Assembly: GCA_035529735.1 (NCBI GenBank)
Contig: DATKWE010000107.1
Location: 1 to 60,387 of the forward strand
Length of the DNA stretch: 60,387 bases
Source: Desulfobacterales bacterium
GTDB lineage: Bacteria > Desulfobacterota > Desulfobacteria > Desulfobacterales > UBA11574
Direction: 5' to 3'
Shown in pieces: positions 267 to 60,387 of the stretch (the stretch's first letter is position 1; each line of letters begins with the position of its first letter). The notes below the pieces were generated by a model that was not told the DNA's origin, did not search any database, and saw only the letters and a program-made list of their open reading frames with translations. The position numbers were made by a program, and so were the translations under genes.

Positions 267-2177
267 TCAGAAGATTTCAAGATCGAGCTTTCTTTGGCGG
301 ATGTGGGAAAGGACCCTGTCCAAAAACCCTTGGTGGGTAACTCCGAACCTGACGTTGCCGTCGAGGGTTCTGACGGAAAGATTTCCGGATTCTTTTTCTT
401 TTTTGCCCACTGTCAGGATCAGCGGAATTTGGTCCAGCTGTGCAGCTCGAACTTTTTTGTTCAGGCTTTCGGTTCGGCTGTCCACTTCTGTGCGAACCCC
501 GGCGGTTTCAAATTTTATTCTGACATCGTTTGCATAGGGCGCAAAATCATCGTTAATGGGGAGAATAACGGCCATGACAGGGGCCATCCACAGGGGAAAT
601 TTCCCTGCAAAATGTTCGATGAGAATACCAAAAAATCGTTCTATTGAGCCGTAGACCGTCCTGTGAATCATTATGGGGCGACGCTTTTCGTTATCCTTGT
701 CGATATAGAAAAGGTCGAATCTTTCAGGCAATGACATATCCAGTTGAACCGTTCCGCATTGCCAGGTCCGGCCCAGGGCATCTTTGATATGGAAGTCGAT
801 TTTGGGCCCGTAGAAAGCGCCGTCGCCTTCATTGATCTTGTATGCTTTGCCGTAAGTGTCAAGGGCTGCTTCCAGACCTTTGGTGGCCACTTCCCACTGG
901 GCATCGGTGCCGATGGATTTTTCCGGACGTGTGGATAGCTCCAGGTTGAATCCGAGGCCAAAGGTTTTGTAAATGCGTTCTTCCAGCTGCAATACACCCA
1001 GAATTTCATCCTGAATCTGCTCGGGCGTCATAAAAATGTGCGCATCGTCCTGGTGAAACGCCCGGACACGGAAAAGTCCGGACAAAACTCCGGAAAGCTC
1101 ATGACGATGAACCAACCCGATTTCGGATGCCCGGATCGGAAGATTCTTGTAAGAATGGGGTTTTGTTTGATACATCAGCATTCCGCCCGGGCAGTTCATC
1201 GGCTTTATTGCATTCGCATTGTCGTCGATGGTGGTGAAATACATGTTTTCCCGGTAATTGTCCCAGTGGCCGCTTTTTTCCCATAACGACCGCTGAAGTA
1301 GAATCGGGGTTTTGGTCTCCACATATCCGGCAGCCCGGTGTTCCTCTCTCCAGTAGTCCAAAAGGGCGTTCCAGACCACCATCCCGTTGGCATGAAAAAA
1401 GGGCATCCCCGGTGCTTCATCGTGAAAACTGAAAAGATCGAGGGCAATACCGATTTTGCGGTGATTTCTTTTTTTGGCCTCCTCAAGGAAATAGAGATAG
1501 TTATCCAGTTCTTTCTTGGTGAAAAATGCCGTGCCGTATATTCTCTGAAGCTGTGCCTTTGTCTGGTCTGCACGCCAGTATGCGCCGGATACTTTCATGA
1601 GCTTTACGGCTTTAATAAAACCGGCATGCGGAAGATGGGGGCCGCGGCATAAATCGGTAAAATCGTCGTGTTCATAAAAGGATATGCTCACATCTTCCAG
1701 TTCAATAATCATTTCGAGTTTATACGGCTCGTCTTTGTAAAATTCCAGTGCTTCGGATTTTGAGACGACACGCCGTCGAAAGGGGACTTTGGCCTTAATG
1801 GTCTTCTTCATTTCAGCTTCAATTTTTGCAAAATCATCTTCTGAAAGCGGCGGCATGTCTATGTCGTAATAAAATCCGTTTTCAACCGACGGGCCGATGG
1901 TCAACTTGGCGTCTTTGTAAAGATGCAAAATTGCCTGGGCCATGACATGGGCTGCGCTGTGGCGGAGGATTTCCAATGCTTCCGGGTCGTTGGTAGTGAT
2001 CAGCCTGACTCGGGAATCTTGGGTAATTTTCGTGTTTAAATCCATAAGCTTTGAATCGAGCTCCATGGCAACGCAATTTCGTGCCAGACCTTCCGAGATA
2101 CTCATGGCCACATCAAACCCCGTGGGATTGTTTTCAAAACCCTTTATATTACCATCAGGAAATGTTATATTGATCAT
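267..2177 (-). CDS. thrS: threonine--tRNA ligase
   Basis: 636 aa with an N-terminal TGS-like MINITFPDG start and an editing-domain HSAAHVMAQA motif. Class II core motifs (FRVRAFHQDDAHIF, GTVQLD) and a C-terminal anticodon-binding domain are present. AGGTGA RBS upstream. Confidence 0.97.
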   Translation of the reverse strand: MINITFPDGNIKGFENNPTGFDVAMSISEGLARNCVAMELDSKLMDLNTKITQDSRVRLITTNDPEALEILRHSAAHVMAQAILHLYKDAKLTIGPSVENGFYYDIDMPPLSEDDFAKIEAEMKKTIKAKVPFRRRVVSKSEALEFYKDEPYKLEMIIELEDVSISFYEHDDFTDLCRGPHLPHAGFIKAVKLMKVSGAYWRADQTKAQLQRIYGTAFFTKKELDNYLYFLEEAKKRNHRKIGIALDLFSFHDEAPGMPFFHANGMVVWNALLDYWREEHRAAGYVETKTPILLQRSLWEKSGHWDNYRENMYFTTIDDNANAIKPMNCPGGMLMYQTKPHSYKNLPIRASEIGLVHRHELSGVLSGLFRVRAFHQDDAHIFMTPEQIQDEILGVLQLEERIYKTFGLGFNLELSTRPEKSIGTDAQWEVATKGLEAALDTYGKAYKINEGDGAFYGPKIDFHIKDALGRTWQCGTVQLDMSLPERFDLFYIDKDNEKRRPIMIHRTVYGSIERFFGILIEHFAGKFPLWMAPVMAVILPINDDFAPYANDVRIKFETAGVRTEVDSRTESLNKKVRAAQLDQIPLILTVGKKEKESGNLSVRTLDGNVRFGVTHQGFLDRVLSHIRQRKLDLEIF

Positions 2178-2424
2178 TGCATTATCACCTAACCCGGATT
2201 ATCCGGAAATTCGAAACAATATCTAAATTATAGTGTAAAAAAATTTTAAACTCTTGGCAGAATAACGGCGTCAAACGCTTTTTTTATTTTGCATTGAATT
2301 TTACGCATCTGAAAATTCGGTTTTTTTATAAAAGAACTCGAATTTCAGAACCCGGAAACCATTTTTTCACGAATAAAGTAAACCAAATTAGAAAAAATAA
2401 CCCTGCGGGTCAAGGGAAATTTGA

Positions 2425-3561
2425 ATGGAAAACAACTATCAGATCGTAGATACAGCCGCCGGACTTGAAAAAGCGGTCAGCGCCCTTGAAAAAGAAAGCG
2501 TCATCGCCGTTGATCTGGAAGCGGACTCCATGTACCATTTTAAAGAAAAGGTCTGTTTGATTCAATTGGGTACGGAAAAAACATCGGTTGTGATTGATCC
2601 GTTACAGATTAGGAATTTTTCTCCCCTTAGTCCCCTTTTTTCTAATCCGGATATAAAAAAGATTTTTCACGGTGCGGATTATGACGTTCGAAGCCTTTAC
2701 CGGGATTTTAAAATTAAGATAAACAATCTTTTTGATACAGAGCTCGCCTGCAGGTTTCTGGGGATCAAAGAGACCGGTTTGAAAGCGGTATTGAAGATGT
2801 TTTTCAAGATAAATATCGATAAAAAATACCAGAAGAAAGACTGGTCCAAAAGGCCGTTGCCCGAGGAAATGATCGCGTATGCTTCAAAGGACGTGATCTA
2901 TCTTCTACCCCTTGCCAAGATACTGATCGATAAGCTTGAAAAAATAGACCGGCTGTCCTGGGTCCTTGAGGAATGTCATAATTTAAGCAAAGTTCGGCCA
3001 ATGTTGCCCGATGAAGAACCGCTGTTTTTAAAATTCAAAGGTGCCGGACGGCTCAGATCGAGAAGCCTCGTCGTACTCGAAGCCTTGTTGCAGTATAGAA
3101 AAAGTGTTGCAGAAAAAAAAGACAAGCCGTTGTTCAAAATTATTGGAAACGATTCGATTCTGAAGATCTCAACCGCCAGACCGCTAACGTTGGGTCGTTT
3201 AAAAGGCGTCAACGCATTGAGCGGCAGACAGATTTCCATGTACGGAAACGATTTGATTAAGGTGCTGGCCCGCGCTTTAAAAATAACAGAGCGTGAACTT
3301 CCGGTGTATCCTCGAAAAACGGTGTCGACAATGCCGTCTGAAGTATTGGAACGGATAAAAGTCCTTAAATCCTGGAGAGATTCAAAAGCCAGGGCATTGG
3401 ATATGGATCCCGGAATGCTTTGCAATAATGCGCTGATCACTGCAATTGCCGTCAAAAATCCTGAAGATAAAAAATCCATGGGAACCATCAAAGAAATGAA
3501 AAATTGGCAGAAGAGGGCCTTCGGCAGGGAGATCATAACGGTTTTAAAATCGAAAAGCTAG
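2425..3561 (+). CDS. rnd: ribonuclease D (DEDD 3'-5' exonuclease + HRDC)
   Basis: 378 aa with DEDDy motifs (VIAVDLEADS, KIFHGADYDV, YASKDVIYL) and an HRDC-like C-terminal half. Confidence 0.88.
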   Translation: MENNYQIVDTAAGLEKAVSALEKESVIAVDLEADSMYHFKEKVCLIQLGTEKTSVVIDPLQIRNFSPLSPLFSNPDIKKIFHGADYDVRSLYRDFKIKINNLFDTELACRFLGIKETGLKAVLKMFFKINIDKKYQKKDWSKRPLPEEMIAYASKDVIYLLPLAKILIDKLEKIDRLSWVLEECHNLSKVRPMLPDEEPLFLKFKGAGRLRSRSLVVLEALLQYRKSVAEKKDKPLFKIIGNDSILKISTARPLTLGRLKGVNALSGRQISMYGNDLIKVLARALKITERELPVYPRKTVSTMPSEVLERIKVLKSWRDSKARALDMDPGMLCNNALITAIAVKNPEDKKSMGTIKEMKNWQKRAFGREIITVLKSKS

Positions 3562-4792: not shown

Positions 4793-5797
4793 TCAACAGG
4801 TTTTGAGTTTCTCCCGGTATGCTTTGATCTTTTCGATGAATATCGGAACAAACTCACGGCAGTCGTCGACAATTCCGTAATCCACTTGTTCAAACACCGG
4901 AGATTTGGCATCGTTGTTGATGGCGACCATGACTTTTGCACCTGAAATGCCGACCATGTGCTGTAATTCCCCCGACAGGCCCACGCCGATATAGAGTTCC
5001 GGACTTACCATTTTTCCGCTCTGTCCGATCATGGTTTCAAGAGCAGCCCAGCCTTCATCAACGGCCGGTCGGGTAGCGCCCAAAGCAGCGTTCAGCACTT
5101 GGGCGAGATCGGCGATTTTACGCCATCCCGACAGATCACCGGCACCCGCACCACCGGCAACGATGATGGGTGCCGATTCAAGGTCCATACCTTCGGGTTC
5201 TTCACGAACGACCGTTAGGGTTTGAATCCGCCGCGGAATTTCCTTTGGAACCTCAATCGGGATAATTTCTCCTGTCCTGTTTTCATCCGGTTCGGGGTTC
5301 GGGAAAACCCCTGCCGCGATGGTTGCCATTTGGGGCCGTCTGTCCGGACAGATAATCGAGAGCAGTCCACCGTATGCAGGTATTCTGCTCTCTAAAACTT
5401 TATTGCCGTCTATCACCAGATCGATGCAGTGAGCCGTCAATCCCGTATCCAGCCTTGCCGCTATCAGGGGCGCCAGTTCTCTCCCCATGGAAGTGGAACC
5501 GATGAGTATGATTTCAGGCTGTTTTTCTTTGGCAAGTTTCTCGATAATTTCAGTATAAATTTCGGGTTGATAAACGGTCAGCTCCGGATCATTCCCCAGA
5601 TAGACGCGGTCTCCGCCTGCCGCAAACAATTGACGGGGGTGTTCTTCCATCCCATGACCCAAAAGTATGGCTTCCACCGTCGTATCCAGCGCGGTTGCCA
5701 ATTTTCGTCCGTGACCGATGAGCTGAAATGATACCGAAAGAATCCGGCAGTCGATCTGCTCGGCAATAACCCACACGGGTCCGCATGATTTTTCCAT
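4793..5797 (-). CDS. etfA: electron transfer flavoprotein subunit alpha
   Basis: 334 aa with the C-terminal FAD-binding signature PELYIGVGLSGELQHMVGISGAKVMVAINND. Follows etfB. Confidence 0.93.
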   Translation of the reverse strand: MEKSCGPVWVIAEQIDCRILSVSFQLIGHGRKLATALDTTVEAILLGHGMEEHPRQLFAAGGDRVYLGNDPELTVYQPEIYTEIIEKLAKEKQPEIILIGSTSMGRELAPLIAARLDTGLTAHCIDLVIDGNKVLESRIPAYGGLLSIICPDRRPQMATIAAGVFPNPEPDENRTGEIIPIEVPKEIPRRIQTLTVVREEPEGMDLESAPIIVAGGAGAGDLSGWRKIADLAQVLNAALGATRPAVDEGWAALETMIGQSGKMVSPELYIGVGLSGELQHMVGISGAKVMVAINNDAKSPVFEQVDYGIVDDCREFVPIFIEKIKAYREKLKTC

Positions 5798-5817
5798 TGC
5801 GCGTATCGATCCTTTCT

Positions 5818-6624
5818 TTAAATTACACCGGCATTAACCAGTCTCTGGACCAGTTGTTCGGCTTTTTCTTCCCGTTTGCCCTCGAGGATTTCAACCTTCC
5901 GTCTGCTGTCCATGGTTGCAATTGTCGACACAATGCTCGGGGAACCTTTCAACCCGACCGATTCTTCAGAGACACCCAGTTGTTGAATTCCCCACTGGGT
6001 AATTTCCTTTTTCCTGGCTTTAATAATTCCTGAAAAGCTGAGTCTTCGGGGCGTGTTCAACGCTCTGGTCACCGTAAAAACCGCCGGAATTTGTACCCGC
6101 ACCAGACGGTAACCGTTTTCAAGTTCGGCCTTTACCGTCCACCATTGACCATTGTATTCCACAATCTCTGTTATCCGTGTAACCACGGGTATTTTCAAGA
6201 AGGTGGCAATTTCCGGTCCGACCCATTCCGTGCTGCCGTCGCTGCTGGCCATTCCACAAAAAACCACGTCAAACGGGCCGATTTTTTCAATACCTTTGGC
6301 CAGGGTGTAGGCCGTGGCAAAGGCATCGGCACCGGCAAAAGCCCGGTCGGAAAGCAAAAAACCTCGATCGGCACCCAAGGCCAGACATTCCTTTACGATG
6401 TTACCTGCCTCGGGTGGACCCATGCTGAGCACTGAAATATGGGCATCAAACGCCTCTTTGAATTGAAGGGCCGCCTCCAGTGCATATTTGTCCAACGGAT
6501 TCAATACCATCGGAACATCACACCGCATGAGCGTCTTTGTGACCGGATCGATTTTTATGTTGCACGCCTCTTTTGGGTCCGGTACCGCTTTGACACAAAC
6601 AACGATTTTGAACATTGTATTCAT
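5818..6624 (-). CDS. etfB: electron transfer flavoprotein subunit beta
   Basis: 268 aa with an FKIVVCVKAVPD start typical of EtfB. Positioned between the acyl-CoA dehydrogenase and etfA. Confidence 0.93.
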   Translation of the reverse strand: MNTMFKIVVCVKAVPDPKEACNIKIDPVTKTLMRCDVPMVLNPLDKYALEAALQFKEAFDAHISVLSMGPPEAGNIVKECLALGADRGFLLSDRAFAGADAFATAYTLAKGIEKIGPFDVVFCGMASSDGSTEWVGPEIATFLKIPVVTRITEIVEYNGQWWTVKAELENGYRLVRVQIPAVFTVTRALNTPRRLSFSGIIKARKKEITQWGIQQLGVSEESVGLKGSPSIVSTIATMDSRRKVEILEGKREEKAEQLVQRLVNAGVI

Positions 6625-6685
6625 CCTATACCGAATCGGATAATCGAAGGATTTCTGGAAATATCTCCCTCAATTCCAAACTGTT

Positions 6686-7822
6686 TTATGAAAGGGTCCA
6701 ACGGGCGATAATGACTTTCATAATGTCGGATGTGCCTGCTGAGGGGCCCAAAACAAAGGAATCGCGCATATAGCGGGAAACCGCATACTCTTCCATGCAC
6801 CCATAGCCGCCGTGTATATCACAGGCCATTTTGGCCGCCCTTTGAGCGGCCTCTGTGGAGAAATACTTGGACACAGCAAATTCGTTGCTGGATCGCTCGC
6901 CCTTGTCCTGCATCGAAACGGCTCTATAACCCAGCAGGCGGCCTGCTTCCAAATCGATTTTCATGTCCGCCAGTTTGTTTTGGATCGTCTGTAACCTGCT
7001 GATCGGTTTCCCATAAAGAATCCGTTCGTTGGCAAACTTAATAGATTCTTCGAGACACGCAGCCTGAAGACCCAGCGCGCAGGCGGCCATGCCGCCTCTG
7101 CCGACGTCCCCGATGGCAGCCAGCGCAATCCCCAACCCCTTTCCTTCAACGCCAACCAGATTTTCTTTCGGAACCCGGCAATTTTCATAGGCCAACTCGC
7201 CGGTATTGCATCCGCGCATGCCGACTTTGTTCTCTTCATGGGTGGCTTTGAATCCTTCCATCCCCTTTTCCATAATGAAGGTCGAGAAGGCTTTGGGATT
7301 TTCATCGTCTTTTGCAAGAACGGTAATTGTGTCGGCAATATGGGAGTTGGTTATGAAGCATTTTCGGCCGTTGAGAATGTAGTCCTCACCGTCTTTTTTA
7401 TACGTTGAGCGTATGCCGGTGGGATCTGAACCGCCGGTGGCCTCCGTGACAGCGGTGGATGCCATCCGTTCTCCCGTTGCCAGGCTCGGTAAAAATTTCT
7501 TTTTCTGCGCATCGGTACCGAATTTCAAAATGGGTTCGATGCCCAATGCAAAAACTTGAAGCATCATTCCCGCTGCCACCGAAACCTTGCTGATTTCTTC
7601 GAGCGCGATAAATCGGGCGGTGTATCCCAGGCCCAGACCCCCGTATTCTTCCGGAATGGTCAATGCCATCATTTCAGCTTCCGCCATGGCTTTGACAAGG
7701 TCCTGACTGACCTTGCCGGTTTTTTCCATTTCAGGAATTTTTGGGGCAACCTGTGTTTCCGCAAATTCTTGAGCCGCTTTTCTGAACATTTCCTGTTCTT
7801 CTGTAAATGTAAAATCGATCAT
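6686..7822 (-). CDS. acyl-CoA dehydrogenase
   Basis: 378 aa with ACAD motifs (TEATGGSDP, GGYGCMEEYAVSRYMRD) and the N/M/C domain layout. Confidence 0.93.
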   Translation of the reverse strand: MIDFTFTEEQEMFRKAAQEFAETQVAPKIPEMEKTGKVSQDLVKAMAEAEMMALTIPEEYGGLGLGYTARFIALEEISKVSVAAGMMLQVFALGIEPILKFGTDAQKKKFLPSLATGERMASTAVTEATGGSDPTGIRSTYKKDGEDYILNGRKCFITNSHIADTITVLAKDDENPKAFSTFIMEKGMEGFKATHEENKVGMRGCNTGELAYENCRVPKENLVGVEGKGLGIALAAIGDVGRGGMAACALGLQAACLEESIKFANERILYGKPISRLQTIQNKLADMKIDLEAGRLLGYRAVSMQDKGERSSNEFAVSKYFSTEAAQRAAKMACDIHGGYGCMEEYAVSRYMRDSFVLGPSAGTSDIMKVIIARWTLS

Positions 7823-7823
7823 T

Positions 7824-8426
7824 TTAACTTACCTCCTTTAATGGCTTCATTCTTTCAAGGTAGTCGATCAGGGTGTTGATAGATCTATCCAAGTTGGCAT
7901 CAGACTTATCCACACCGTACATAACCGTAGCGCCCAACATCCCTGCAAACAGCATTTCGGTGATGGCCCTGGTATCCACATCGTTACTCAGTCCACCCGA
8001 TGCCTTGGCTTCATCCAGAAGCCTCTTGAGCAGGTGTTTAAGTCCTATAAACCCTTTATTCACTTCTCTGGATAAAAGGGGGCGCTGGTCGTTCAGTTCA
8101 ACGGAAAATGTAATGAAGATACACCCTCCGGGGAAATTCTCGGCATCTTTAAGATACCGGTCTCTGAAGTTTTCAAGAAATCTTTTTATTTTTCCGATCG
8201 GATTTACAATCTCATCCAGGCCGGAAAGATTCTTTTCACGCCAAATGTTACGCGCTTCATCCAGAGCCTGGAAGAAGAGTTCCTCTTTGCTCTTAAAATG
8301 ATTATAAAAACCGCCCTTTGATGTGCCTGCCGCTTCTAATATCTGACTCATTGAAGTGTTCAGGAAGCCGTTCAAGGAAAACAGCCTTAGCGATTCGTGT
8401 ATGATTTTTTTCTTAAGATCACTCAT
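7824..8426 (-). CDS. TetR/AcrR family transcriptional regulator
   Basis: 200 aa with an N-terminal HTH (GFLNTSMSQILEAAGTSKGGFYNHFKSKEELF). Its stop is 1 nt from the acyl-CoA dehydrogenase start. Confidence 0.9.
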   Translation of the reverse strand: MSDLKKKIIHESLRLFSLNGFLNTSMSQILEAAGTSKGGFYNHFKSKEELFFQALDEARNIWREKNLSGLDEIVNPIGKIKRFLENFRDRYLKDAENFPGGCIFITFSVELNDQRPLLSREVNKGFIGLKHLLKRLLDEAKASGGLSNDVDTRAITEMLFAGMLGATVMYGVDKSDANLDRSINTLIDYLERMKPLKEVS

Positions 8427-8449
8427 GATGCGGGTTCCTTCCGAGCAAT

Positions 8450-8469
8450 AAGACCGACCAGTCGGTCTT
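8450..8469. promoter_or_regulatory. perfect palindrome AAGACCGAC-ca-GTCGGTCTT, candidate TetR operator
   Basis: 9+9 bp perfect inverted repeat 24 bp upstream of the tetR-family start codon. Confidence 0.55.
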
Positions 8470-8738
8470 TGTTCATTCTTATTTTAGTGCCGCTGTTATG
8501 TCAATATTTTATTCAACCCTAAATGGGCGTAGACAAAACGGGAAAATGGAAGACCTATATATTTGTGATTTACAGAAACGACCTTTCAATGATACCGTCG
8601 ATTATATTGATATTTTACCGGTACAGACCATCTGTTCAAGTCCGGGACATTCGAGGAAACGCATCAAAAAATACGGATGAGTTTCCGGTTGCTCAGCCGA
8701 TTTACCGGCATTCATTTTTAGTATAGGAGGATTTGCCA

Positions 8739-9488
8739 ATGAGATGTCATGTGAAAAAGATATTATTATTCATCCCCTTTTTGTCAATGGTTTTTCCGAT
8801 GGTTTTAACCGCCCAAGAAAAGTTCGAGACCGATATCGTTAAAACATCCGCCGGCGACCTGGAAATCACCTTTATCGGCCATGGGACACTAATGCTCAAC
8901 CTTGGCGGGAAAATCATCCATGTCGATCCTTGGACCCGGCTGGCCGATTATTCCGAAATGCCCAAAGCCGATCTTATTCTGTTAACCCATGAGCACCAGG
9001 ACCATCTCGATCTGAACGCCATAGAGATTCTGCGCACCGAAAAAACCGATGTGGTGTTAACCCAGACCTGCTCAAGCCAGGTCAAAGGCGGGATCGTTAT
9101 GAACAATGGCGATGTTAGGGTCGTAAAAGGTTTAAAAATAGAAGCGGTGCCGGCATACAATGTTGTCCATATGCGGAGTAAAGGGGTTCCTTACCATCCA
9201 AAGGGCATGGGTAACGGTTATGTCATCACACTCGGAGATAAGCGGGTTTATGTGGCGGGTGATACGGAAAACACTCCGGAAATGACGATGTTAAAAGATA
9301 TCGATATCGCCTTTCTGCCCGTGAACCTGCCGTATACAATGACGCCGGAAATGGTTGCATCGGCGACAAAAACTTTTAAACCTAAAATACTCTATCCGTA
9401 TCACTATGGCGAAACAGATACGTCGAAAATCGTAGAATTGCTAAAGGATGTGAAGCAGACCGAGGTGCGTATTCGAAAGATGAAGTAA
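8739..9488 (+). CDS. secreted MBL-fold metallo-hydrolase
   Basis: GGAGG lies 8 nt before the ATG at 8739; the listed TTG at 8733 is too close to the RBS. Has a signal peptide (ILLFIPFLSMVFPMVLTAQ) and an HEHQDH motif. Confidence 0.85.
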   Translation: MRCHVKKILLFIPFLSMVFPMVLTAQEKFETDIVKTSAGDLEITFIGHGTLMLNLGGKIIHVDPWTRLADYSEMPKADLILLTHEHQDHLDLNAIEILRTEKTDVVLTQTCSSQVKGGIVMNNGDVRVVKGLKIEAVPAYNVVHMRSKGVPYHPKGMGNGYVITLGDKRVYVAGDTENTPEMTMLKDIDIAFLPVNLPYTMTPEMVASATKTFKPKILYPYHYGETDTSKIVELLKDVKQTEVRIRKMK

Positions 9489-13989: not shown

Positions 13990-14064
13990 AGGCACGTAGC
14001 TCAGGGGGAGAGCGCTACCTTGACACGGTAGAGGTCGTTGGTTCAAATCCAATCGTGCCTACCA
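13990..14064 (+). tRNA. tRNA-Val (anticodon GAC), CCA encoded
   Basis: Hand-folded cloverleaf: acceptor AGGCACG/CGTGCCT, D arm GCTC-AGGGGGA-GAGC, anticodon arm CTACC-TTGACAC-GGTAG, T arm GTTGG-TTCAAAT-CCAAT, discriminator A, then CCA. Confidence 0.9.
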
Positions 14065-15008: not shown

Positions 15009-15947
15009 ATGTCGTTCAAACATACCCCTGTAATGCTTCATGAAGTGCTCCGCTATCTGAACTGCAGACCCGGAAAAATCTATGTTGATTGTACCCTTGG
15101 AGGCTCGGGACATGCCAGGGCAATATGCAAAAAAATCATGCCGGATGGCGTCTTTATCGGCATCGATCAAGATATAGATGCCGTCCAACACGCAAAAAAA
15201 GTGTTAGAACCATTGGACTTAAGCGTCCACATCTTTCACGGAAACTTTATATATCTTCCTGATTTTCTTGAACAGTTAAATATAAGATGGGTGGACGGGA
15301 TTCTCCTTGATCTTGGGGTTTCACTTGATCAGATCGAATCAAGCGGTCGTGGTTTCAGTTTTAAAAGGGATGAACCGCTTGATATGCGGATGAGCACAGC
15401 GGCGAACACAACAGCGGAAGATTTAGTCAACCGGACGGCGGAAAATAGCCTCAGGAAAATATTTCAGGAATACGGAGAAGAACGCTGGTCCGCACAAATC
15501 GCAAGAAAAATAGTTCAGCAGCGGAAGGGCAAACCCATAAGGTCCAGCAAACATCTGGCCCGGATTGTGTGCGATGCTATTCCAAAGCCCGCACTGTTTA
15601 ATCAAAAAATTCATCCGGCAACACGGGTTTTCATGGCGCTTAGAATTGCTGTAAACAAGGAGCTTGAAATGCTCGATTTATTCATGAAAAACGTTGCGGA
15701 TCTCCTCACTCCCAAAGGTCGTCTCTGTATTCTATCTTTCCACTCCCTTGAAGACCGAATTGTAAAACATCGATTAAAAGCTTTGGAAAAATCGTGTGTG
15801 TGTCCACCCGATTTTCCCAAATGTGTCTGTGATCAAAGATCGGTCATTCGCTTACTGACAAAAAAGATCGTTCGTCCCACAAAAGACGAAATTGCAAGAA
15901 ATCCCATGGCAAGAAGTACAAAATTGAGAGCAGCGGAAAAGATATAA
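15009..15947 (+). CDS. rsmH: 16S rRNA (cytosine1402-N4)-methyltransferase
   Basis: 312 aa with HTPVML, DCTLGGSGH and DLGVS motifs. Confidence 0.95.
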   Translation: MSFKHTPVMLHEVLRYLNCRPGKIYVDCTLGGSGHARAICKKIMPDGVFIGIDQDIDAVQHAKKVLEPLDLSVHIFHGNFIYLPDFLEQLNIRWVDGILLDLGVSLDQIESSGRGFSFKRDEPLDMRMSTAANTTAEDLVNRTAENSLRKIFQEYGEERWSAQIARKIVQQRKGKPIRSSKHLARIVCDAIPKPALFNQKIHPATRVFMALRIAVNKELEMLDLFMKNVADLLTPKGRLCILSFHSLEDRIVKHRLKALEKSCVCPPDFPKCVCDQRSVIRLLTKKIVRPTKDEIARNPMARSTKLRAAEKI

Positions 15948-54635: not shown

Positions 54636-55757
54636 ATGAAAAAGCCGGTTTACAAAAATCTTTTCAAACCTTTGAAGCTGGATGGTCTGAGATTGAAAAA
54701 TCGTATTACGATGGCACCGTTATATCTGGGCTATGCCGCTTCGGGGGGAAGGATATCCCCGCTGTTGCTTTACTATTACAAAGAAATGGCGCAAAGCGGG
54801 GCAGCAATGATTATGGTCGAAAATTCAAGTATAACGTCGAACGGGAGCGGATCACCTCGAACCATAAGATGTGACCACAATCGATACTTAAACGGCCTTG
54901 AAGTGCTTGCCAATACCATAAAAAATGAAAAGAGCCTTGCCGGCCTTCAGATTAATCATGCCGGACGATTTGCCCATGTTTCAGAGCCGGTGGCACCCTC
55001 AGTGGTTCCGGCATTTGGGAAATCCCCCCGGGCGCTGACCAAAAGGGATATGACAACCATCCAGAAACAGTATGCCAATGCTGCTTTAAGAGTAAAAAAA
55101 GCAGGATTTGATCTCGTAGAGCTTCATGGAGGGACCGGCTACCTCCTTGCCCAGTTTGTCTCACCAAGGACCAATCAGCGGACCGACGCTTACGGCGGGT
55201 CGATTGAAAATCGTATCAAATTTCCCATCGAAGTTTTAAAACGGGTTAAAGATACCGTAGGAAATTTTCCGGTTGGGTATCGCTTTCTGGTCGATGAGTG
55301 GCTTCCGGACGGTCTTAAGGCCAAAGAATCCATCGTTCTGGCTAAAGGCCTGGAGAAAGAGGGGGTTGCCTATATATCGACCATGGGCGGGACTTATGAA
55401 TCTTTTTTTCTACCGGAAATCATCAACAAGGTCAAAAGGCCCGGTTACATGGTATCCTTGGCCGCAACTGTCAAAAAGGCGGTGGGAGTCCCTGTGATTG
55501 CGGCCGGGCGAATTTCAACTCCGGCAAAGGCGGAGTCTATTTTGCAGAAAAAAAGTGCGGATCTTATCGGATTGGCCCGTATGTTATGGGTCGATCCGGA
55601 ATGGCCGAAAAAGGCCCGGAAAGGAGATGATCGATCAATCCTGAAATGCAATCCTAAATGTGATGCGTGTCAGCAACTGGTTATACAGGGGAAGCCGGCC
55701 TACTGTCCAAGATGGAGCAAGGAAAAACGGGCGGCATATCGTGAGCTGTTTCAATAA
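54636..55757 (+). CDS. NADH:flavin oxidoreductase, Old Yellow Enzyme family, with a C-terminal Cys motif
   Basis: 373 aa with a TIM-barrel OYE pattern (MAPLYLGY, QINHAGR, ELHGGTGYLLAQFVSPRTNQRTD), a C-terminal CNPKCDACQQ..CP motif and a GGAGAGGAG RBS. Confidence 0.9.
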   Translation: MKKPVYKNLFKPLKLDGLRLKNRITMAPLYLGYAASGGRISPLLLYYYKEMAQSGAAMIMVENSSITSNGSGSPRTIRCDHNRYLNGLEVLANTIKNEKSLAGLQINHAGRFAHVSEPVAPSVVPAFGKSPRALTKRDMTTIQKQYANAALRVKKAGFDLVELHGGTGYLLAQFVSPRTNQRTDAYGGSIENRIKFPIEVLKRVKDTVGNFPVGYRFLVDEWLPDGLKAKESIVLAKGLEKEGVAYISTMGGTYESFFLPEIINKVKRPGYMVSLAATVKKAVGVPVIAAGRISTPAKAESILQKKSADLIGLARMLWVDPEWPKKARKGDDRSILKCNPKCDACQQLVIQGKPAYCPRWSKEKRAAYRELFQ

Positions 55758-55848
55758 ATAAGAAACGGTATGAAACTTGGATTTTAAATTGTGGTGCCTT
55801 ATCCACAAAACCAGACGCGACATCATAAACCTGTATGCCGGTTTTAGG

Positions 55849-55878: not shown

Positions 55879-56015
55879 TGTATAAATCCTTTAATCTAAT
55901 CCGCATGTGCCTGTTCTGTACGAATCGAATTTTGTTTTTTCCTTATTACGTGACGAACCAGATACAATCTTTAACGTTAAACTGCTAATCGAGAAGGAAG
56001 ATAGTAGGAAGTAGT

Positions 56016-56759
56016 ATGCGAACATATATATTTTGCCATAAGAAAGCCTCCACCAGAGAGGATGCTTGGCCACTATGGCTGATGAAGCGCTTTCCTACCT
56101 CAAGCACCTCTCGTATGGATGCAGAGCGCGGTGGACAAAAACTCGGAAGCTGGCGTATGGCAAAACCGAAATTACCACTGAAGGGGCTCTGTGCCACGTG
56201 CAATAATGGCTGGATGAGCAGACTTGAAAACGAAGCCAAGCCTGTTCTGGAATTTATGTTTGATGACAAACTGAAAGACATAGACGCATCAAGCCAATCA
56301 ACGCTCGCACGTTGGGCGGTAAAAACAGCTATGGTTCTTGAGTGTATCAATCCAGATAGGACTTGGTTTTACTCCGTTGACGAGCGTCAACTGATGCGCG
56401 CTACGCAATCTCTTCCGCCACGCACGTCAGTGTGGATTGGCAAATGTATCAACCAACCAAACATTTATAGTGCGGCAAAAGATCTCCGGACCACACCAGA
56501 TGATGGTGGAATCCATGCGTATTCTACTACAATGGCCTTTGGTTCTCTCGCGTTTCAGATTGTGAGCCTCAAAACTCCTGCAACAATCCCTGAAAATGTC
56601 ACTCTGACTTATGATGTCACTGAGGGGCCTTGGGGCCAAACCCTACTTCAGGTGTGGCCAATCACCCAAGAATCAGTGGGGTGGCCACCGCATTACGGTC
56701 TTAATAGTGAATTTGGGCTGGATGCGCTCACTGAGCGGTTAAGTCCTATAACACGCTGA
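56016..56759 (+). CDS. hypothetical protein (247 aa) with an N-terminal C..EDxWPxWL / CxxCNxGW Cys motif
   Basis: AGGAAG RBS 4-5 nt upstream. No family recognised; the motif arrangement is reminiscent of a degenerate HNH/zinc-finger module. First unit of the cassette-like islet. Confidence 0.7.
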   Translation: MRTYIFCHKKASTREDAWPLWLMKRFPTSSTSRMDAERGGQKLGSWRMAKPKLPLKGLCATCNNGWMSRLENEAKPVLEFMFDDKLKDIDASSQSTLARWAVKTAMVLECINPDRTWFYSVDERQLMRATQSLPPRTSVWIGKCINQPNIYSAAKDLRTTPDDGGIHAYSTTMAFGSLAFQIVSLKTPATIPENVTLTYDVTEGPWGQTLLQVWPITQESVGWPPHYGLNSEFGLDALTERLSPITR

Positions 56760-56855
56760 GCCGGGGCGGTTATGTTGGCCGTTTAACATCGCAGTTCAGC
56801 GGACAACCAGGGTCGGGGGATTTTGACTATCTGAGCGAAATTTAAAAGATTGCTT

Positions 56856-56906
56856 TTTTAACAAGGTCAGTGGAAGCCATGGCTGCCCCTGACCGCAGCG
56901 TTATCC
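56856..56906 (+). repeat. attC-like element E1 (TTTTAAC-aa-imperfect stem-gcagc-GTTATCC)
   Basis: Stem GGTCAGTGGAAGC/GCTGCCCCTGACC has 11 bp plus two mismatches. It is flanked by RYYYAAC-like and GTTRRRY-like boxes. Confidence 0.45.
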
Positions 56907-56919
56907 GGCGGGAAAAAAT

Positions 56920-57336
56920 TTAGGCAGATATATCGGACTGGATAGATTGGATAGCATTCTGTGCGGCATGAACTAAGAATGACGATCTGGACATACCGCG
57001 TTTTTTAGCAGCGGCATCAATCTGTTTTAACGTCATTTCAGGCACGGTAACATTCACTCTGACCGTACGGGGTTTGGCATCAGGTACCGAAACGACCAAA
57101 TAAGCGATCGCATTGGCGTAATCGGGATCGCCCATGATTTCTTCGAGCCTGGATGGAACAGGCAATTGTTCGCCGTCTTCGAGCATGCCCTGGATATGAA
57201 GGGTGAGAGCCTCCTGAGCCATATCCTTGGCTTCATCGATATTTTTTCCAGCGGTGATGCATCCGGGAAAGTCCGGAAACGATACGCCGAAATCTGATTT
57301 GGCTTCTTTATGAACGATAGCAATATAGTTTGCCAT
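56920..57336 (-). CDS. hicB: HicB-family antitoxin with a C-terminal ribbon-helix-helix
   Basis: 138 aa with an N-terminal HicB fold (YIAIVHKEAKSDFGVSFPDFPGCITAG) and a CopG-like tail (LKQIDAAAKKRGMSRSSFLVHAA). Confidence 0.9.
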   Translation of the reverse strand: MANYIAIVHKEAKSDFGVSFPDFPGCITAGKNIDEAKDMAQEALTLHIQGMLEDGEQLPVPSRLEEIMGDPDYANAIAYLVVSVPDAKPRTVRVNVTVPEMTLKQIDAAAKKRGMSRSSFLVHAAQNAIQSIQSDISA

Positions 57337-57345
57337 GGTAATACC

Positions 57346-57534
57346 TCAACTAAATTTGATACCTGACCGGCGTTCGATGCTTTTTAGTGTGCCAATCGGT
57401 ATATCCTTTTTTGGGTGTGGAACAGTGACACGCCCTTTCCGTTCCGGATGCCGGAATTGTGTGTGAGAGCCGACTTTTGCAATTTCGTACCACCCATTTT
57501 GTTTGAGTATTTTTAGAATTTTTCGGCTATCCAT
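57346..57534 (-). CDS. hicA: HicA-family mRNA interferase toxin
   Basis: 62 aa from the ATG at 57534, containing KILKQNGWYEIAKVGSHTQFRHP. The listed GTG at 57549 adds five unlikely residues. Confidence 0.9.
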   Translation of the reverse strand: MDSRKILKILKQNGWYEIAKVGSHTQFRHPERKGRVTVPHPKKDIPIGTLKSIERRSGIKFS

Positions 57535-57557
57535 AGTGTGTATTAACACACACTATG
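57532..57557. promoter_or_regulatory. palindrome CATAGTGTG-N8-CACACTATG overlapping the hicA start codon, candidate HicB operator
   Basis: 9+9 perfect inverted repeat. TTGACA (minus strand, 57566-57571) lies upstream. Confidence 0.5.
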
Positions 57558-57585
57558 TTATGTTTTGTCAATATTTATAATTTGC

Positions 57586-57649
57586 GGATAACCTTGCGTT
57601 TTCAGTCGGACGCGTCTAAAGCCGCGCCGTTGAGGCGCCCGGTTATACC
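57586..57649 (+). repeat. attC-like element E2 (GGATAAC-spacer-bulged stem-spacer-GGTTATACC)
   Basis: TTTCAG[T]CGG[A]CGCG pairs with CGCGCCGTTGAGG: 13 pairs with two single-base bulges on the 5' arm. Unpaired spacers of 6-7 nt lie next to both core boxes. Confidence 0.5.
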
Positions 57650-57753
57650 TAAACCGGCAGAGCCAAAAATATAGCCGATAGATAGTTGCATAATATCTTG
57701 TGAAAACATGACAGCATATTGGTTGTAACATACTAATTATAGGAGTCTTAATA

Positions 57754-58608
57754 ATGGAAGATCGGAAATGGATGACAACTTCTGCCGGCGTAAAAATGCC
57801 ACGGATTATTTACGGCACGGCCTGGAAAAAGGACCGCACGGCAGACCTGGTTGTGAAAGCCATCCAGGCCGGATTTAGGGGGATTGATACCGCCTGCCAA
57901 CCGATACACTATAACGAGCCACTGGTAGGAGCAGCGCTTCACAGACTGAAAGATCATGGTATCGAACGTGAGGCCTTGTTCCTACAAACCAAATTCACCC
58001 CACTTTCAGGCCAGGATCTAAGACAAGTGCCATACGATAAGAATTCCCCTGTTGAGTTGCAGGTTGCCCAATCTTTTGAGGCATCGAAAAAAAACCTGCA
58101 AACAGAATATGTGGATTCTCTAATACTTCATTCACCAATGGCACCCCACGCGCTTTTGATGAAGGCATGGAATGCAATGGAAAAAATTCAAAAAACTGGG
58201 GGAGCGCTTCAATTGGGAATCAGCAACTGTTACGATACTGAAGTGATTAGGTCACTCTATGCCGATGCCAACGTGAAGCCGGCGGTTGTACAAAATCGGT
58301 TTTATCAGGAAACGGGGTATGATGCAGACTTGCGTCACTGGTGCTCTGATCATGGGGTTATTTACCAGAGTTTTTGGACCCTTACTGCAAATCCTCATAT
58401 TTTATCCAGCAAAATCGTTCGAACCGTTGCTCAGAAGTATAAAAAAACAGAAGCGCAAATCTTTTTTCGATATCTCAGCCTATCTGGTATCGTGCCGCTT
58501 ACCGGAACGTCTTCTGAGCAGCACATGACAGAAGACCTCAGCATCTTTGATTTTGAGCTTTCTTCTGAGGATTTAAACAATGTGAGTCTCCTGCTAAATC
58601 AGGTATAA
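57754..58608 (+). CDS. aldo/keto reductase
   Basis: 284 aa with AKR motifs (GTAWK, GFRGIDTA, LILHSP) and an AGGAG RBS. Confidence 0.92.
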   Translation: MEDRKWMTTSAGVKMPRIIYGTAWKKDRTADLVVKAIQAGFRGIDTACQPIHYNEPLVGAALHRLKDHGIEREALFLQTKFTPLSGQDLRQVPYDKNSPVELQVAQSFEASKKNLQTEYVDSLILHSPMAPHALLMKAWNAMEKIQKTGGALQLGISNCYDTEVIRSLYADANVKPAVVQNRFYQETGYDADLRHWCSDHGVIYQSFWTLTANPHILSSKIVRTVAQKYKKTEAQIFFRYLSLSGIVPLTGTSSEQHMTEDLSIFDFELSSEDLNNVSLLLNQV

Positions 58609-58684
58609 CCTCTAAGGATTGACACGACATGAAAGGTCGTTTTCAATCGGTGAATTCAAGTTGCAAGTGCACCCCGAATAGAAA
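58602..58684 (+). repeat. degenerate attC-like element E3 starting with GGTATAACC
   Basis: The 9-mer is the exact reverse complement of GGTTATACC at 57641. It shares CGTTTTCA(A/G)TCGG with E2 and contains stems TTGAcACGAC/GTCGTttTCAA and TTTCAATCGG/CCGAATAGAAA. No clear GTTRRRY end. Confidence 0.3.
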
Positions 58685-58803
58685 CTAATAATTTGATGGG
58701 CGTACCCTTAATAAACGGGCGAACACCATGCTCGCGTCCACGAAAATTAAGTCTTGACTTACGGTCTGAATTTAGTACCATATAGGGACCGGAGGTGATA
58801 AAA

Positions 58804-59085
58804 ATGAATATTACAAGTGATATAAGGTCTGTTACCTATCTTAAGTCAAAGGCGGCCGATTTGCTTAATCAAATCAACGAAACCCATCGTCCCGTAATAA
58901 TAACACAGAATGGAGAACCAAGAGGTGTGCTTCAAGACCCTAAAAGTTATGAAAATATGCGTAATGCAATCGGCATATTGAAGTTGGTCTCACAGGGTGA
59001 ATCCGATATTAAAAATGGTAAGGCCAAGTCACAGGAGGATGTATTCAAAGATATTGAAAACTCACTGAAAGAAAAGCTTAAATGA
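58804..59085 (+). CDS. Phd/YefM-family antitoxin
   Basis: GGAGG lies 8 nt before the ATG at 58804. Contains SVTYLKSKAADLLNQINETHRPVIITQNGEPRGVL, and its ATGA stop overlaps the toxin start. Confidence 0.88.
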   Translation: MNITSDIRSVTYLKSKAADLLNQINETHRPVIITQNGEPRGVLQDPKSYENMRNAIGILKLVSQGESDIKNGKAKSQEDVFKDIENSLKEKLK

Positions 59086-59420
59086 GTGACAACTACCAAA
59101 TTGAATGGTCTCGTGTTGCAGAAAATGATTTGAAGGGAATTATCGAATATATTGCAGAAGACAGCCCCGCCAATGCATTAAAACTTCTAAAAAAGATCAA
59201 ACAAAAAGCATCCGGGCTCTACACCCTTCCTGAACGAGGCCGCATAGTGCCGGAGCTTCAAGATCAAGGCATATTTATATATCGTGAATTAATTATCACT
59301 CCCTGGAGAATTATATTCAGAATATCAGAAATGAAGGTTTATGTTTTGTCTGTTTTGGATGCGAGGCAGAACGTTGAAGATATCCTGTTGAACAGATTGA
59401 TTTATCCTGAATTAGGCTAA
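59082..59420 (+). CDS. RelE/ParE-family toxin
   Basis: 112 aa with the typical IEWSRVAENDLKGIIEYIA..PERGRIVPEL..YRELIITPWRIIFRI pattern. Confidence 0.87.
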   Translation: MSDNYQIEWSRVAENDLKGIIEYIAEDSPANALKLLKKIKQKASGLYTLPERGRIVPELQDQGIFIYRELIITPWRIIFRISEMKVYVLSVLDARQNVEDILLNRLIYPELG

Positions 59421-59427
59421 CGAAGCA

Positions 59428-59754
59428 ATGATTATGCCTGAGCGATTCGTCAGTGAAGTCATCAGACCTGTGGTTGCCACATGTGACACCTCGCGCATGG
59501 CAGCCGGGGAGCCTGGACTCCCGCGTGAGTTCGTGTGGCGAGGTCGAACCATTAAGATTGCGGCTGTACTGCGCACCTGGCGTGAAACCGGGAAATGTCG
59601 CCACGGCAGTTCCGAGTTATATGTTCGCAAGCACTGGTTCGAGGTCGCCACGACCTCCAACAGCACGATGAAAATCTATTTCGATAGGCAGCCTCGCGGT
59701 GGACGCAAGAGGGATAGATGGTGGCTTTTAACCATTTGTGAGTCAGAGGAATAA
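59428..59754 (+). CDS. DUF6504-like hypothetical protein
   Basis: 108 aa. REFVWRGRTIKI..YVRKHWFEV..IYFDRQ..WWLL resembles the DUF6504 pattern as I recall it. Starts 7 nt after the relE-like stop. Confidence 0.6.
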   Translation: MIMPERFVSEVIRPVVATCDTSRMAAGEPGLPREFVWRGRTIKIAAVLRTWRETGKCRHGSSELYVRKHWFEVATTSNSTMKIYFDRQPRGGRKRDRWWLLTICESEE

Positions 59755-59868
59755 ATTTCCAAAAATTAGACGGATTATGGTCGAGTGTTCGTCGTTGCCG
59801 GGAATCTGAACACCGGCGCGAAAAAACGCGCCAGAAATCATCTTTAAAAAGAGAAGTAAGGAGAATTC

Positions 59869-60198
59869 ATGGGGAAAAAATACACTATAGTAGACGGGAT
59901 GGAGTTGTTAAAAGAGCAACTACCCAACGTGGCGAACGCCTTCGGAGTCCTTCGTGACGAAGCGACCAAAGACGGCGTATTGAGTGCCAGAACCAAGAGA
60001 TTGATGATGGTAGCGGTTTCAGTGGCGCAGCGCTGCGAACCTTGCATCCGAACACATGTAAAGGCGGCTGTTGAAATGGGGGTGTCCCGTACAGAAATCC
60101 TGGAAGCAACGGGAATCTCTATTCTGATGGCGGGAGGTCCTGCCATTGCTTATACTTCAACGGTTGTTTTGGAAGTCCTTGATGAAATGGGCGTTTGA
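59869..60198 (+). CDS. carboxymuconolactone decarboxylase (AhpD-like) family protein
   Basis: 109 aa containing TKRLMMVAVSVAQRCEPCIRTHV (CxxC) and an AAGGAG RBS. Confidence 0.87.
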   Translation: MGKKYTIVDGMELLKEQLPNVANAFGVLRDEATKDGVLSARTKRLMMVAVSVAQRCEPCIRTHVKAAVEMGVSRTEILEATGISILMAGGPAIAYTSTVVLEVLDEMGV

Positions 60199-60260
60199 AA
60201 GAAACAGAAGATCGAAAAGGCAAAAAAAAAGGGCCCTTATGCAAATAAGGAAATTATAAA

Positions 60261-60387
60261 ATGATAAACGTAATTGCATCAATACACATTAAAGAAGGTC
60301 GATTATCAGAGTTTGTTGAGATTTTCAAATCCAATATTCCAAATGTTCTTGAAGAGAAGGGATGTATAGAGTATGTGCCAACCATTG
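60261..60387 (+). CDS. partial ABM-domain (antibiotic biosynthesis monooxygenase-like) protein, 3' end outside the window
   Basis: MINVIASIHIKEGRLSEFVEIF..EEKGCIEYVP matches the ABM/quinol monooxygenase N-terminal pattern. AAGGA RBS upstream. Truncated by the window edge. Confidence 0.5.
   Translation, partial: MINVIASIHIKEGRLSEFVEIFKSNIPNVLEEKGCIEYVPTI

Follow-up and report, generated by a model that had tools for sequence, protein, structure and literature searches.

We analysed a stretch of 60,387 nucleotides from a Desulfobacterales bacterium (assembly GCA_035529735.1, contig DATKWE010000107.1), hereafter the window, whose right end carries an islet of small genes and imperfect palindromes. 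The islet follows an OYE flavin oxidoreductase gene (54636-55757, plus strand; PF00724) that ends 219 nt before the first recombination core. It opens with an open reading frame (ORF) of 247 amino acids (56016-56759, plus strand), for which no family was matched. Two genes on the minus strand come next, the antitoxin hicB (56920-57336; PF15919, 2.6e-37) and the toxin hicA (57346-57549; PF07927, 7.3e-21), followed by an aldo/keto reductase gene on the plus strand (57754-58608; PF00248). The nearest OYE genes belong to Desulfobacterales metagenome-assembled genomes (MAGs), including Desulfobacteraceae Eth-SRB1 and Eth-SRB2 (93-95% protein identity), and the same gene layout occurs in the metagenome contigs L001-L006 at 99.7-99.9% identity. 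We conclude that the region from 55977 to the right end of the window is very probably a short, partly decayed integron cassette array without a nearby integrase, that is, a group of clustered attC sites without an integron-integrase (CALIN), in a Desulfobacterales chromosome.

Two attC sites and two complete cassettes

Motif positions, unit sizes and complementarities were re-read directly on the window sequence, and attC sites were called with surrogate models instead of the reference IntegronFinder software. The first model (R1) is a canonical attC covariance model made from 15 attCs of class-1 integron cassettes taken from plasmids, and it recovered attCs kept out of its training, namely that of estX (24 bits) and that of an unannotated cassette (41 bits). 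Metagenome contigs of JGI were scanned with a 19-base motif from the 3' arm of the first attC of the islet (attC-1), yielding at least 119 stretches, 80 of which were taken as loci. R1 found 72 matches in 257 kb of these metagenome loci versus 2 in 441 kb of related genome loci. Its 72 matches in the sediment loci were used to build a further attC model (R3), from which the window was excluded, and 32 short attCs of sediment arrays were used to build a hidden Markov model (the short-attC HMM).

Two attC sites lie in the islet, both on the plus strand. The first and longer one, attC-1 (56781-56906, 126 nt), was identified by the attC models and by alignment to a family of long sites from sediments. 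It starts with the inverse core R'' GTTTAAC (56781-87) and the spacer ATCGC, continues with the L'' arm (56793-56813), an AT-rich loop and a further arm, arm B, and closes with the L' arm (56876-56894), the spacer GCAGC and the core R' GTTATCC (56900-06), read directly on the sequence. With filters off, attC-1 was the best match of R1 on both strands of the whole window (16.1 bits, E=0.1). R3 scored it at 29.3 bits (E=1.3e-4), and all model positions were covered in both cases. Its identity to the consensus derived from 45 members of the family is 71%, against 65-90% across the members themselves. Its full-length alignment partner is an element in the spacer behind the ABM-family gene of contig L005, and the two have in common the pattern xxxTAAC, 5 nt, AGTTCA..GACA.CCAGGG, an AT-rich stretch, GTGGAAG.C.TGGCTG.CCCTGAC, 5 nt, GTTAxxC. 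The initial annotation, which read the islet from the bare sequence as integron-like, had placed this site (its E1) at 56856-56906, which is only the 3' 51 nt of the element, and had taken TTTTAAC as its R'', matching the upstream core at six of seven positions; the true R'' is GTTTAAC and matches at all seven. We also considered E1 as a self-contained attC or terminator of 51 nt and rejected this, because the homologous 129-nt element of L005 and the metagenome family show a unit of about 127 nt.

The metagenome loci provided a detailed picture of this long family. We extracted 54 distinct full-length members of about 127 nt from the 80 loci. Their R'' and R' cores are variable and often self-complementary, and in the alignment of 45 members core positions 1-4 take many pair types, while the L helix of 19 pairs is 91% paired and has bulged bases at T16 and A24. 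Covariation at one stem pair (GC in 36 members, AU in 5) speaks for the far 5' arm being paired with the 3' arm. Members score 15-31 bits with R1 and form same-strand arrays with a spacing of 0.4-3 kb, and several sediment loci carry an integrase in divergent position. In L071, the integrase matches the NCBIfam model TIGR02249 'integron integrase' with 412 bits (cutoff 265), is 47% identical to IntI1 and is followed by at least 12 attCs, each right behind a single ORF. One long-family site stands among the short attCs of this locus, and sites of 55-130 nt are mixed in one array. Loci L114, L062/L132 and L058 likewise combine an integrase with same-strand attC arrays.

The long attC contains three related arms, at 56793-56813, 56865-56882 and 56876-56894 in the window and likewise in all family members. 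The internal arm is a repeat of the 5' arm; by pairing locally with the 3' arm it can produce a hairpin, the E1 of the initial annotation, that competes with the long-range attC fold. It is conceivable, though rather improbable, that arm B serves as a folding switch that tunes recombination.

The second site, E2 (57586-57648, 63 nt), is of the short class and was detected with the short-attC HMM and R3. It consists of R'' GGATAAC, the spacer CTTGC, an imperfect stem with a bulged T and a bulged A, the spacer GCCCG and R' GTTATAC. E2 was the top match of the whole window for the short-attC HMM, over its full length (E=0.12), the second-best for R3 (12.6 bits, E~1) and the fourth for R1 (8.9 bits, E=7.5). 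The site is mildly degraded: CCGCTG has become CCGTTG, with one stem C changed to T, making a G-T pair. It fits the attC stem geometry only if G-T pairs are allowed. Folded as DNA, E2 has z-scores of -2.1 and -2.7. The imperfect hairpins described in the initial annotation are real in general, folding somewhat better than shuffled sequences (z -1.5 to -2.9).

The first cassette (55977-56900, plus strand, 924 bp) comprises a 39-nt leader, the 247-aa ORF and attC-1, and was delimited by alignment to the metagenome locus L175. Its left core GTTAAAC (55976-55982), with the crossover between G55976 and T55977, lies inside the palindrome TTTAACGTTAAA in non-attC DNA and is the reverse complement, at 7 of 7 positions, of GTTTAAC at 56781. 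The cassette is about 85% identical to L175, while both flanks are unrelated: similarity starts at GTTA(A/C)ACTG (window 55976) and stops at GCAGCGTTAT (window 56904). In L177 the same GTTAAAC serves as the R' of a preceding attC. Together, these similarity limits and the core in L177 show that 55977-56900 is a discrete cassette. The encoded protein is not an orphan, as had been supposed, but belongs to a recurrent cassette-borne family with at least 217 homologues of about 247 aa, all annotated as 'hypothetical', and it has no match in Pfam, NCBIfam or PADLOC. In L175 and L176 (82% protein identity), the ORF and its 127-nt attC stand alone between thioesterase and methyltransferase genes. The homologues of L177 and L179 have attCs on both sides. 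An attC follows the ORF homologue in L175, L176, L177 and L179, and in L178 an HNH gene intervenes between the two.

Two further observations concern this protein family. Its members have conserved cysteine pairs near the N-terminus (CHKK..., CATCNNGW). In L177, near the homologous cassette, group II intron reverse-transcriptase genes (2067-3407, 5363-6715 and 8334-8744) are interspersed with attC sites, an arrangement that fits attC-targeting introns.

The second cassette (56901-57642, plus strand, 742 bp) carries E2 and, in reverse orientation, hicBA with a promoter and a likely operator of its own. Its limits come from comparison with metagenome loci L185-L194. The first six nucleotides, TTATCC, are the complement of GGATAA in the R'' of E2. 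Homologues of HicB at 93% identity or above number in the thousands. In L185-L194, hicAB is 97% identical in protein and lies between TrmO and flavodoxin-type genes. A homologue of E2 was kept with the hicAB module (L188:1189-1250, E=8e-6), another short attC occurs on the far side of hicAB (E=1.6e-9), and an attC-like match is found behind TrmO (E=5e-3). These attCs are on the strand opposite to hicAB, the same arrangement as in the window. Similarity to the window ends at the GTT of the E2 R' (GTTATAC versus GTTCGCC) and at the GTT of the upstream R' (GCAGCGTTATCC versus AGGGCGTTAGCC). L189 carries one methyltransferase cassette that L188 lacks; its insertion point is exactly G|TTAGCC. The similarity breaks at both R' cores and the conserved E2 homologue show that 56901-57642 is a real cassette.

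A perfect-arm palindrome of 26 nt, CATAGTGTGTATTAACACACACTATG (57532-57557), overlaps the start of hicA, is conserved in L026 and L188 and is likely the HicB operator. In L019 (1497-2218), a PRiA4_ORF3-like gene joins a hicA fragment directly and hicB is missing; the join is not at an attC core, and the loss may be either a deletion or an assembly join.

The initial annotation had argued for cassettes mainly from the complementarity of cores across each unit. TTTTAAC (56856-62), GTTATCC (56900-06), GGATAAC (57586-92), GGTTATACC (57641-49), GGTATAACC (58602-10), GTTAAAC (55976-82) and the palindrome around it (55970-81) were all found where it had placed them. The complementarities it reported (7/7, 9/9 and 6/7) are exact, and the unit sizes of 924 and 742 bp and the leader (40 nt when counted from G55976) are right. 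Yet 9.4% of all GTTNNNN in the window have their reverse complement 300-1500 nt downstream, which makes core complementarity weak evidence when taken alone, and the case therefore rests on independent evidence. Three findings rise above this chance level. The complementary partners sit where attC models independently place them; the top attC-model match in 60 kb, on both strands, is 56781-56906; and similarity to other cassette copies breaks at the cores. For the first two units, independent tests bear out the reading as integron cassettes that lack an integrase nearby.

The reductase, element E3 and the right end of the islet

The third cassette position, which starts with TTATAC at 57643, is held by the aldo/keto reductase, whose attC has been replaced by a truncated repeat. 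This repeat forms part of E3 (58603-58648, plus strand), which consists of an R''-like GTATAAC over the reductase stop codon, the spacer CTCTA and a hairpin. No attC model matched E3. It had been described as attC-like with no convincing GTT box. The R''-like core and the missing box were borne out, there being no R' at usable spacing; as a usable attC, in contrast, the element does not stand, being a truncated copy of a different, high-copy repeat. GTTGCAA at 58660, 11 nt past the stem, was tried as R' and rejected, given its 11-nt spacer and the lack of a TTGCAAC partner downstream. In all homologues the reductase gene ends in the conserved GGTATAACC, from which the 9/9 complementarity had been read. 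The reductase travels widely, with thousands of homologues of 87-92% in unrelated contexts. In L180 (4850-4889) and L181 (4850-4891), R''..R' mini-elements of 40-42 nt with 12-14 bits lie behind the gene; these are shorter than any usual attC. A degenerate attC-like site precedes the reductase homologue in L181 (3785-3847).

We compared contigs of four public metagenome runs over the islet for depth and joints. Contig depth rises at 58606-58648 to about 1700, versus about 70, in run X1, and over the four metagenomes the repeat reaches about 25 times the contig depth of the genome. The contexts of these contigs diverge right before 58604-07 and right after 58648. No joint at an attC core was seen among them over the islet, and the few joints elsewhere occur in single contigs. 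The E3 body corresponds to the first 43 nt of this separate repeat, cut at 58648. Fuller copies follow the ABM stop codon in L001 (10695-10755), L003 (3796-3856) and L004 (2655-2713). They read, over 57 nt, GCATAAC-CTCTA-AGGATTGACACGAC-CTGCAAG-GTCGTATTCAATC-CATT-GTTCAAG, and from these fuller copies it follows that the window copy is truncated and lacks an R'.

The nature of the E3-type repeat is itself debatable. It always begins at the AAC of the R''-like core, with variable bases before it, as would fit an attC. Two observations argue against this: about 15 bases past the GTT are conserved among its copies, and it is absent from the 80 integron-array loci. We consider it rather improbable that the module ...AAC-CTCTA-AGGATTGACACGAC represents a third attC-like family able to replace another attC at the R'' core. 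If this were true, one and the same ORF would be receiving different attC bodies, the exchange taking place at R'' instead of R', and this would matter for the open question of how attC sites are acquired by genes.

Beyond E3, the islet continues on the plus strand with phd-parE (58795-59420), a DUF6504 gene (59428-59754) and a CMD-family gene (59869-60198), all assigned by Pfam, small and cassette-like. No attC was found between parE and the DUF6504 gene, between the latter and the CMD gene or between the CMD and ABM genes. The ABM-family gene (Pfam, plus strand) runs from 60261 to the window end, where it is cut. The start of the ABM cassette (60237-60387, plus strand) was recognised by core complementarity: TTATGC at 60237-42 is the 6/6 complement of GCATAA in the R'' GCATAAC that overlaps the ABM stop codon in L005 (939-945). 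This makes 60237 a cassette-type left boundary, although with a C, not a G, as the preceding base. Contig L005, which reaches 1.9 kb beyond the right end of the window, carries a long-family attC after ABM (939-1065; 21.6 bits with R3) and then a radical-SAM gene. In L001, L003 and L004 an E3-type repeat follows ABM and the contig then ends. L005 and L001 are 100% identical over 946 nt; the point where they part (L005:939, L001:10693), just past the right end of the window, comes directly behind GCATAACCT at the stop codon of ABM. A real array was correctly perceived in the initial annotation, but incompletely: the islet runs on to the window end and includes a 1.6-kb stretch without attC.

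Integrase search, locus variability and alternative explanations

Searches with tblastn, using IntI1 and the IntI of L071, found no integrase in the window, which covers 55 kb to the left of the islet and about 2.7 kb to the right of E2. The same searches found none in L001, L004 and L005, including the 1.9 kb that L005 adds past the window end. No intI, attI or Pc lies upstream of the first cassette, nor any IntI-like ORF or fragment, in agreement with the initial annotation, which saw neither intI nor attI. An Rfam scan of the window gave no attC match; its single match was a tRNA gene (13990-14061).

The surroundings of the islet are highly variable. All of the more than 30 relatives compared lose similarity at the OYE stop codon (window 55757-55760 versus L018-L053), and the content downstream of OYE differs among them; the islet has no syntenic counterpart in the relatives. 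About 33 nt past the stop codon (ATGTTAACAATCCATTTAAGTAGAAATGGGGAT, a small hairpin) are common to six close relatives, after which each diverges. The site behind the OYE stop codon has the look of an insertion hot spot at strain level. L018 regains similarity over 52 nt at a position that lies, in window terms, 6.3 kb downstream. The variable region of the relatives contained no attC except for a single strong one in L050, which belongs to another Desulfobacterales MAG (15633-15691, minus strand; R3 score 37 bits); an OYE fragment lies about 5 kb away from it. The search for intI in the relatives' loci returned only generic tyrosine recombinases, in L021 of Eth-SRB1 (6241-8610). These weak matches, 23-33% to IntI1, span about 2.4 kb roughly 1.4-3.8 kb upstream of OYE; by identity they are not of integron type, and no attC was found there.

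Several observations weigh against a cassette array of this kind. R1 gave attC-1 only E=0.1, and E2 taken alone scores only E of about 0.1-7 with the surrogate models. The minimum-energy fold of attC-1 consists of local hairpins, not the long-range attC fold, and its stem has three to four more mismatches than the family consensus. E3 has an R'' alone and no R', and its repeat family may be REP-like (repetitive extragenic palindromic) rather than attC. No attC model matched anything in 58650-60236. The second long attC may be absent from the genome of the window, because contigs that are 100% identical up to its R'' differ beyond it. In L026, hicBA (88% identical over 56911-57575) occurs without E1 and E2. 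Finally, the integrase search covered the window and the contig extensions, and an IntI elsewhere in the genome is possible.

These points bear differently on the competing explanations. That the elements are generic intergenic REP-like repeats or bidirectional terminators, complementary by chance, could be argued from the local E1 hairpin between convergent genes, from the common 7/7 links between GTT and AAC (9.4% of the GTT sites of the window), from the 5' module of E3, a genuine high-copy repeat, and from the Y1-transposase genes near reductase homologues. It is nonetheless scarcely credible for the islet and already refuted for attC-1 and E2: no other copy of either exists in the remaining 55 kb of the window or in the 441 kb of relatives, the long family is arrayed beside integron integrases, and whole-cassette similarity breaks at G|TT cores. 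That a complete integron extends beyond the examined region, with its intI and attI there and the islet as its distal part, we regard as very unlikely. The window does stop inside the array, and the metagenome contigs break at the same place; however, the attC orientation would put intI and attI to the left of cassette 1, where OYE and 55 kb of ordinary genes hold no IntI-like ORF, and on the other side L005 carries a radical-SAM gene without any integrase.

A further possibility, which we consider unlikely on balance, is that the islet is no single array: cassettes would have entered one by one, at attG sites of the genome, a pre-existing variable island in which hicBA and other genes were already present, with attC-1 as the only functional site. 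Cassette 1 does abut non-attC DNA, the homologous cassette of L175 is a lone insertion between two housekeeping-type genes, hicBA occurs at the same locus of L026 without attCs, and the ABM boundary is preceded by C instead of G. Against this stands the chaining of the cores: the R' of attC-1 is the exact complement of the R'' of E2, and the R' of E2 is the exact complement of the next R'', as expected of adjoining cassettes. In another array, moreover, hicBA and an E2-type attC are conserved together as one unit.

For the cassette array without a local integrase, the established integron model provides a plausible history. An IntI acting in trans, supplied from elsewhere, would have inserted the cassettes. 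The bottom strand of each attC is predicted to fold so that R'' pairs with R' and L'' with L', with bulged bases marking the strand, and strand exchange by IntI would take place between G and TT. At GTTAAAC the first cassette borders on ordinary DNA, which would fit insertion at a genomic GWT (attG-type) site or a loss upstream of it. The array would now be frozen, because no IntI is encoded locally. Given an IntI, only hicBA could leave, as a circle of 742 bp, since no other unit is flanked by two attC sites. Cassette 1, with no upstream attC, would be stranded, and the reductase, with no R', immobile.

As for expression, no Pc promoter is present at the islet. A simple consensus scan listed no terminator-like site on the plus strand between OYE and the 247-aa ORF, and solely on this ground the ORF may be read through from OYE. 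The hicBA and phd-parE modules, with promoters of their own, probably help to keep the islet in place.

Relation to known elements and significance

CALIN elements are defined by two or more attC sites that share a strand and are separated by less than 4 kb, without an integron integrase in the vicinity of 4 kb (or 10 kb) (PMC4889954; IntegronFinder 2.0, PMC9024848). The islet is a new instance of this already known kind of element. Its two attC sites, the first ending at 56906 and the second starting at 57586, lie on one strand within that distance, with neither an intI nor a recognisable intI pseudogene nearby, and its cassettes are few and of unknown or accessory function. It departs from CALIN in being partly decayed, with one truncated attC and 1.6 kb of small genes without attC, and in mixing attC types of 126 nt and 63 nt.

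Sedentary chromosomal integrons have long attC sites, such as the repeats of about 120-130 nt in Vibrio cholerae. Like integrons of the Vibrio cholerae type, the islet has a long (~127 nt), family-conserved attC, and it shares with sedentary chromosomal integrons the toxin-antitoxin cassettes with their own promoters, some of them reversed. Unlike them, it lacks integrase, attI and Pc. The sediment arrays that contain the long family are heterogeneous (L071, with sites of 55-130 nt), and in its centre the long site has unpaired AT-rich sequence together with an arm repeating the 5' arm; in both respects they differ from sedentary chromosomal integrons.

Single attC sites lacking integron-integrases (SALIN) are single cassettes inserted at genomic GWT sites, or attG (bioRxiv 10.1101/2022.09.11.507474). 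Cassette 1, beginning at a GTT in ordinary DNA, and the lone L175 homologue between chromosomal genes resemble such insertions. In contrast to SALIN, a second cassette joins cassette 1 core to core, and attG insertion would be a possible explanation for its left end. Short imperfect palindromes behind stop codons and the high copy number of the E3 module recall REP elements and bacterial interspersed mosaic elements (BIMEs). Unlike these, the long element and E2 are not dispersed, have variable inverse cores and travel with a gene as a unit.

Our understanding of integrons is unchanged by these findings. They demonstrate that core complementarity, read without tools, can find a real cassette array in an uncultured lineage of sulfate reducers. 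They also document a CALIN in decay, with one excisable cassette, one stranded first cassette and one lost attC. Through the shared attC family of about 127 nt and the widespread 247-aa cassette protein, the chromosome of this Desulfobacterales bacterium is linked to a large pool of sediment integrons.

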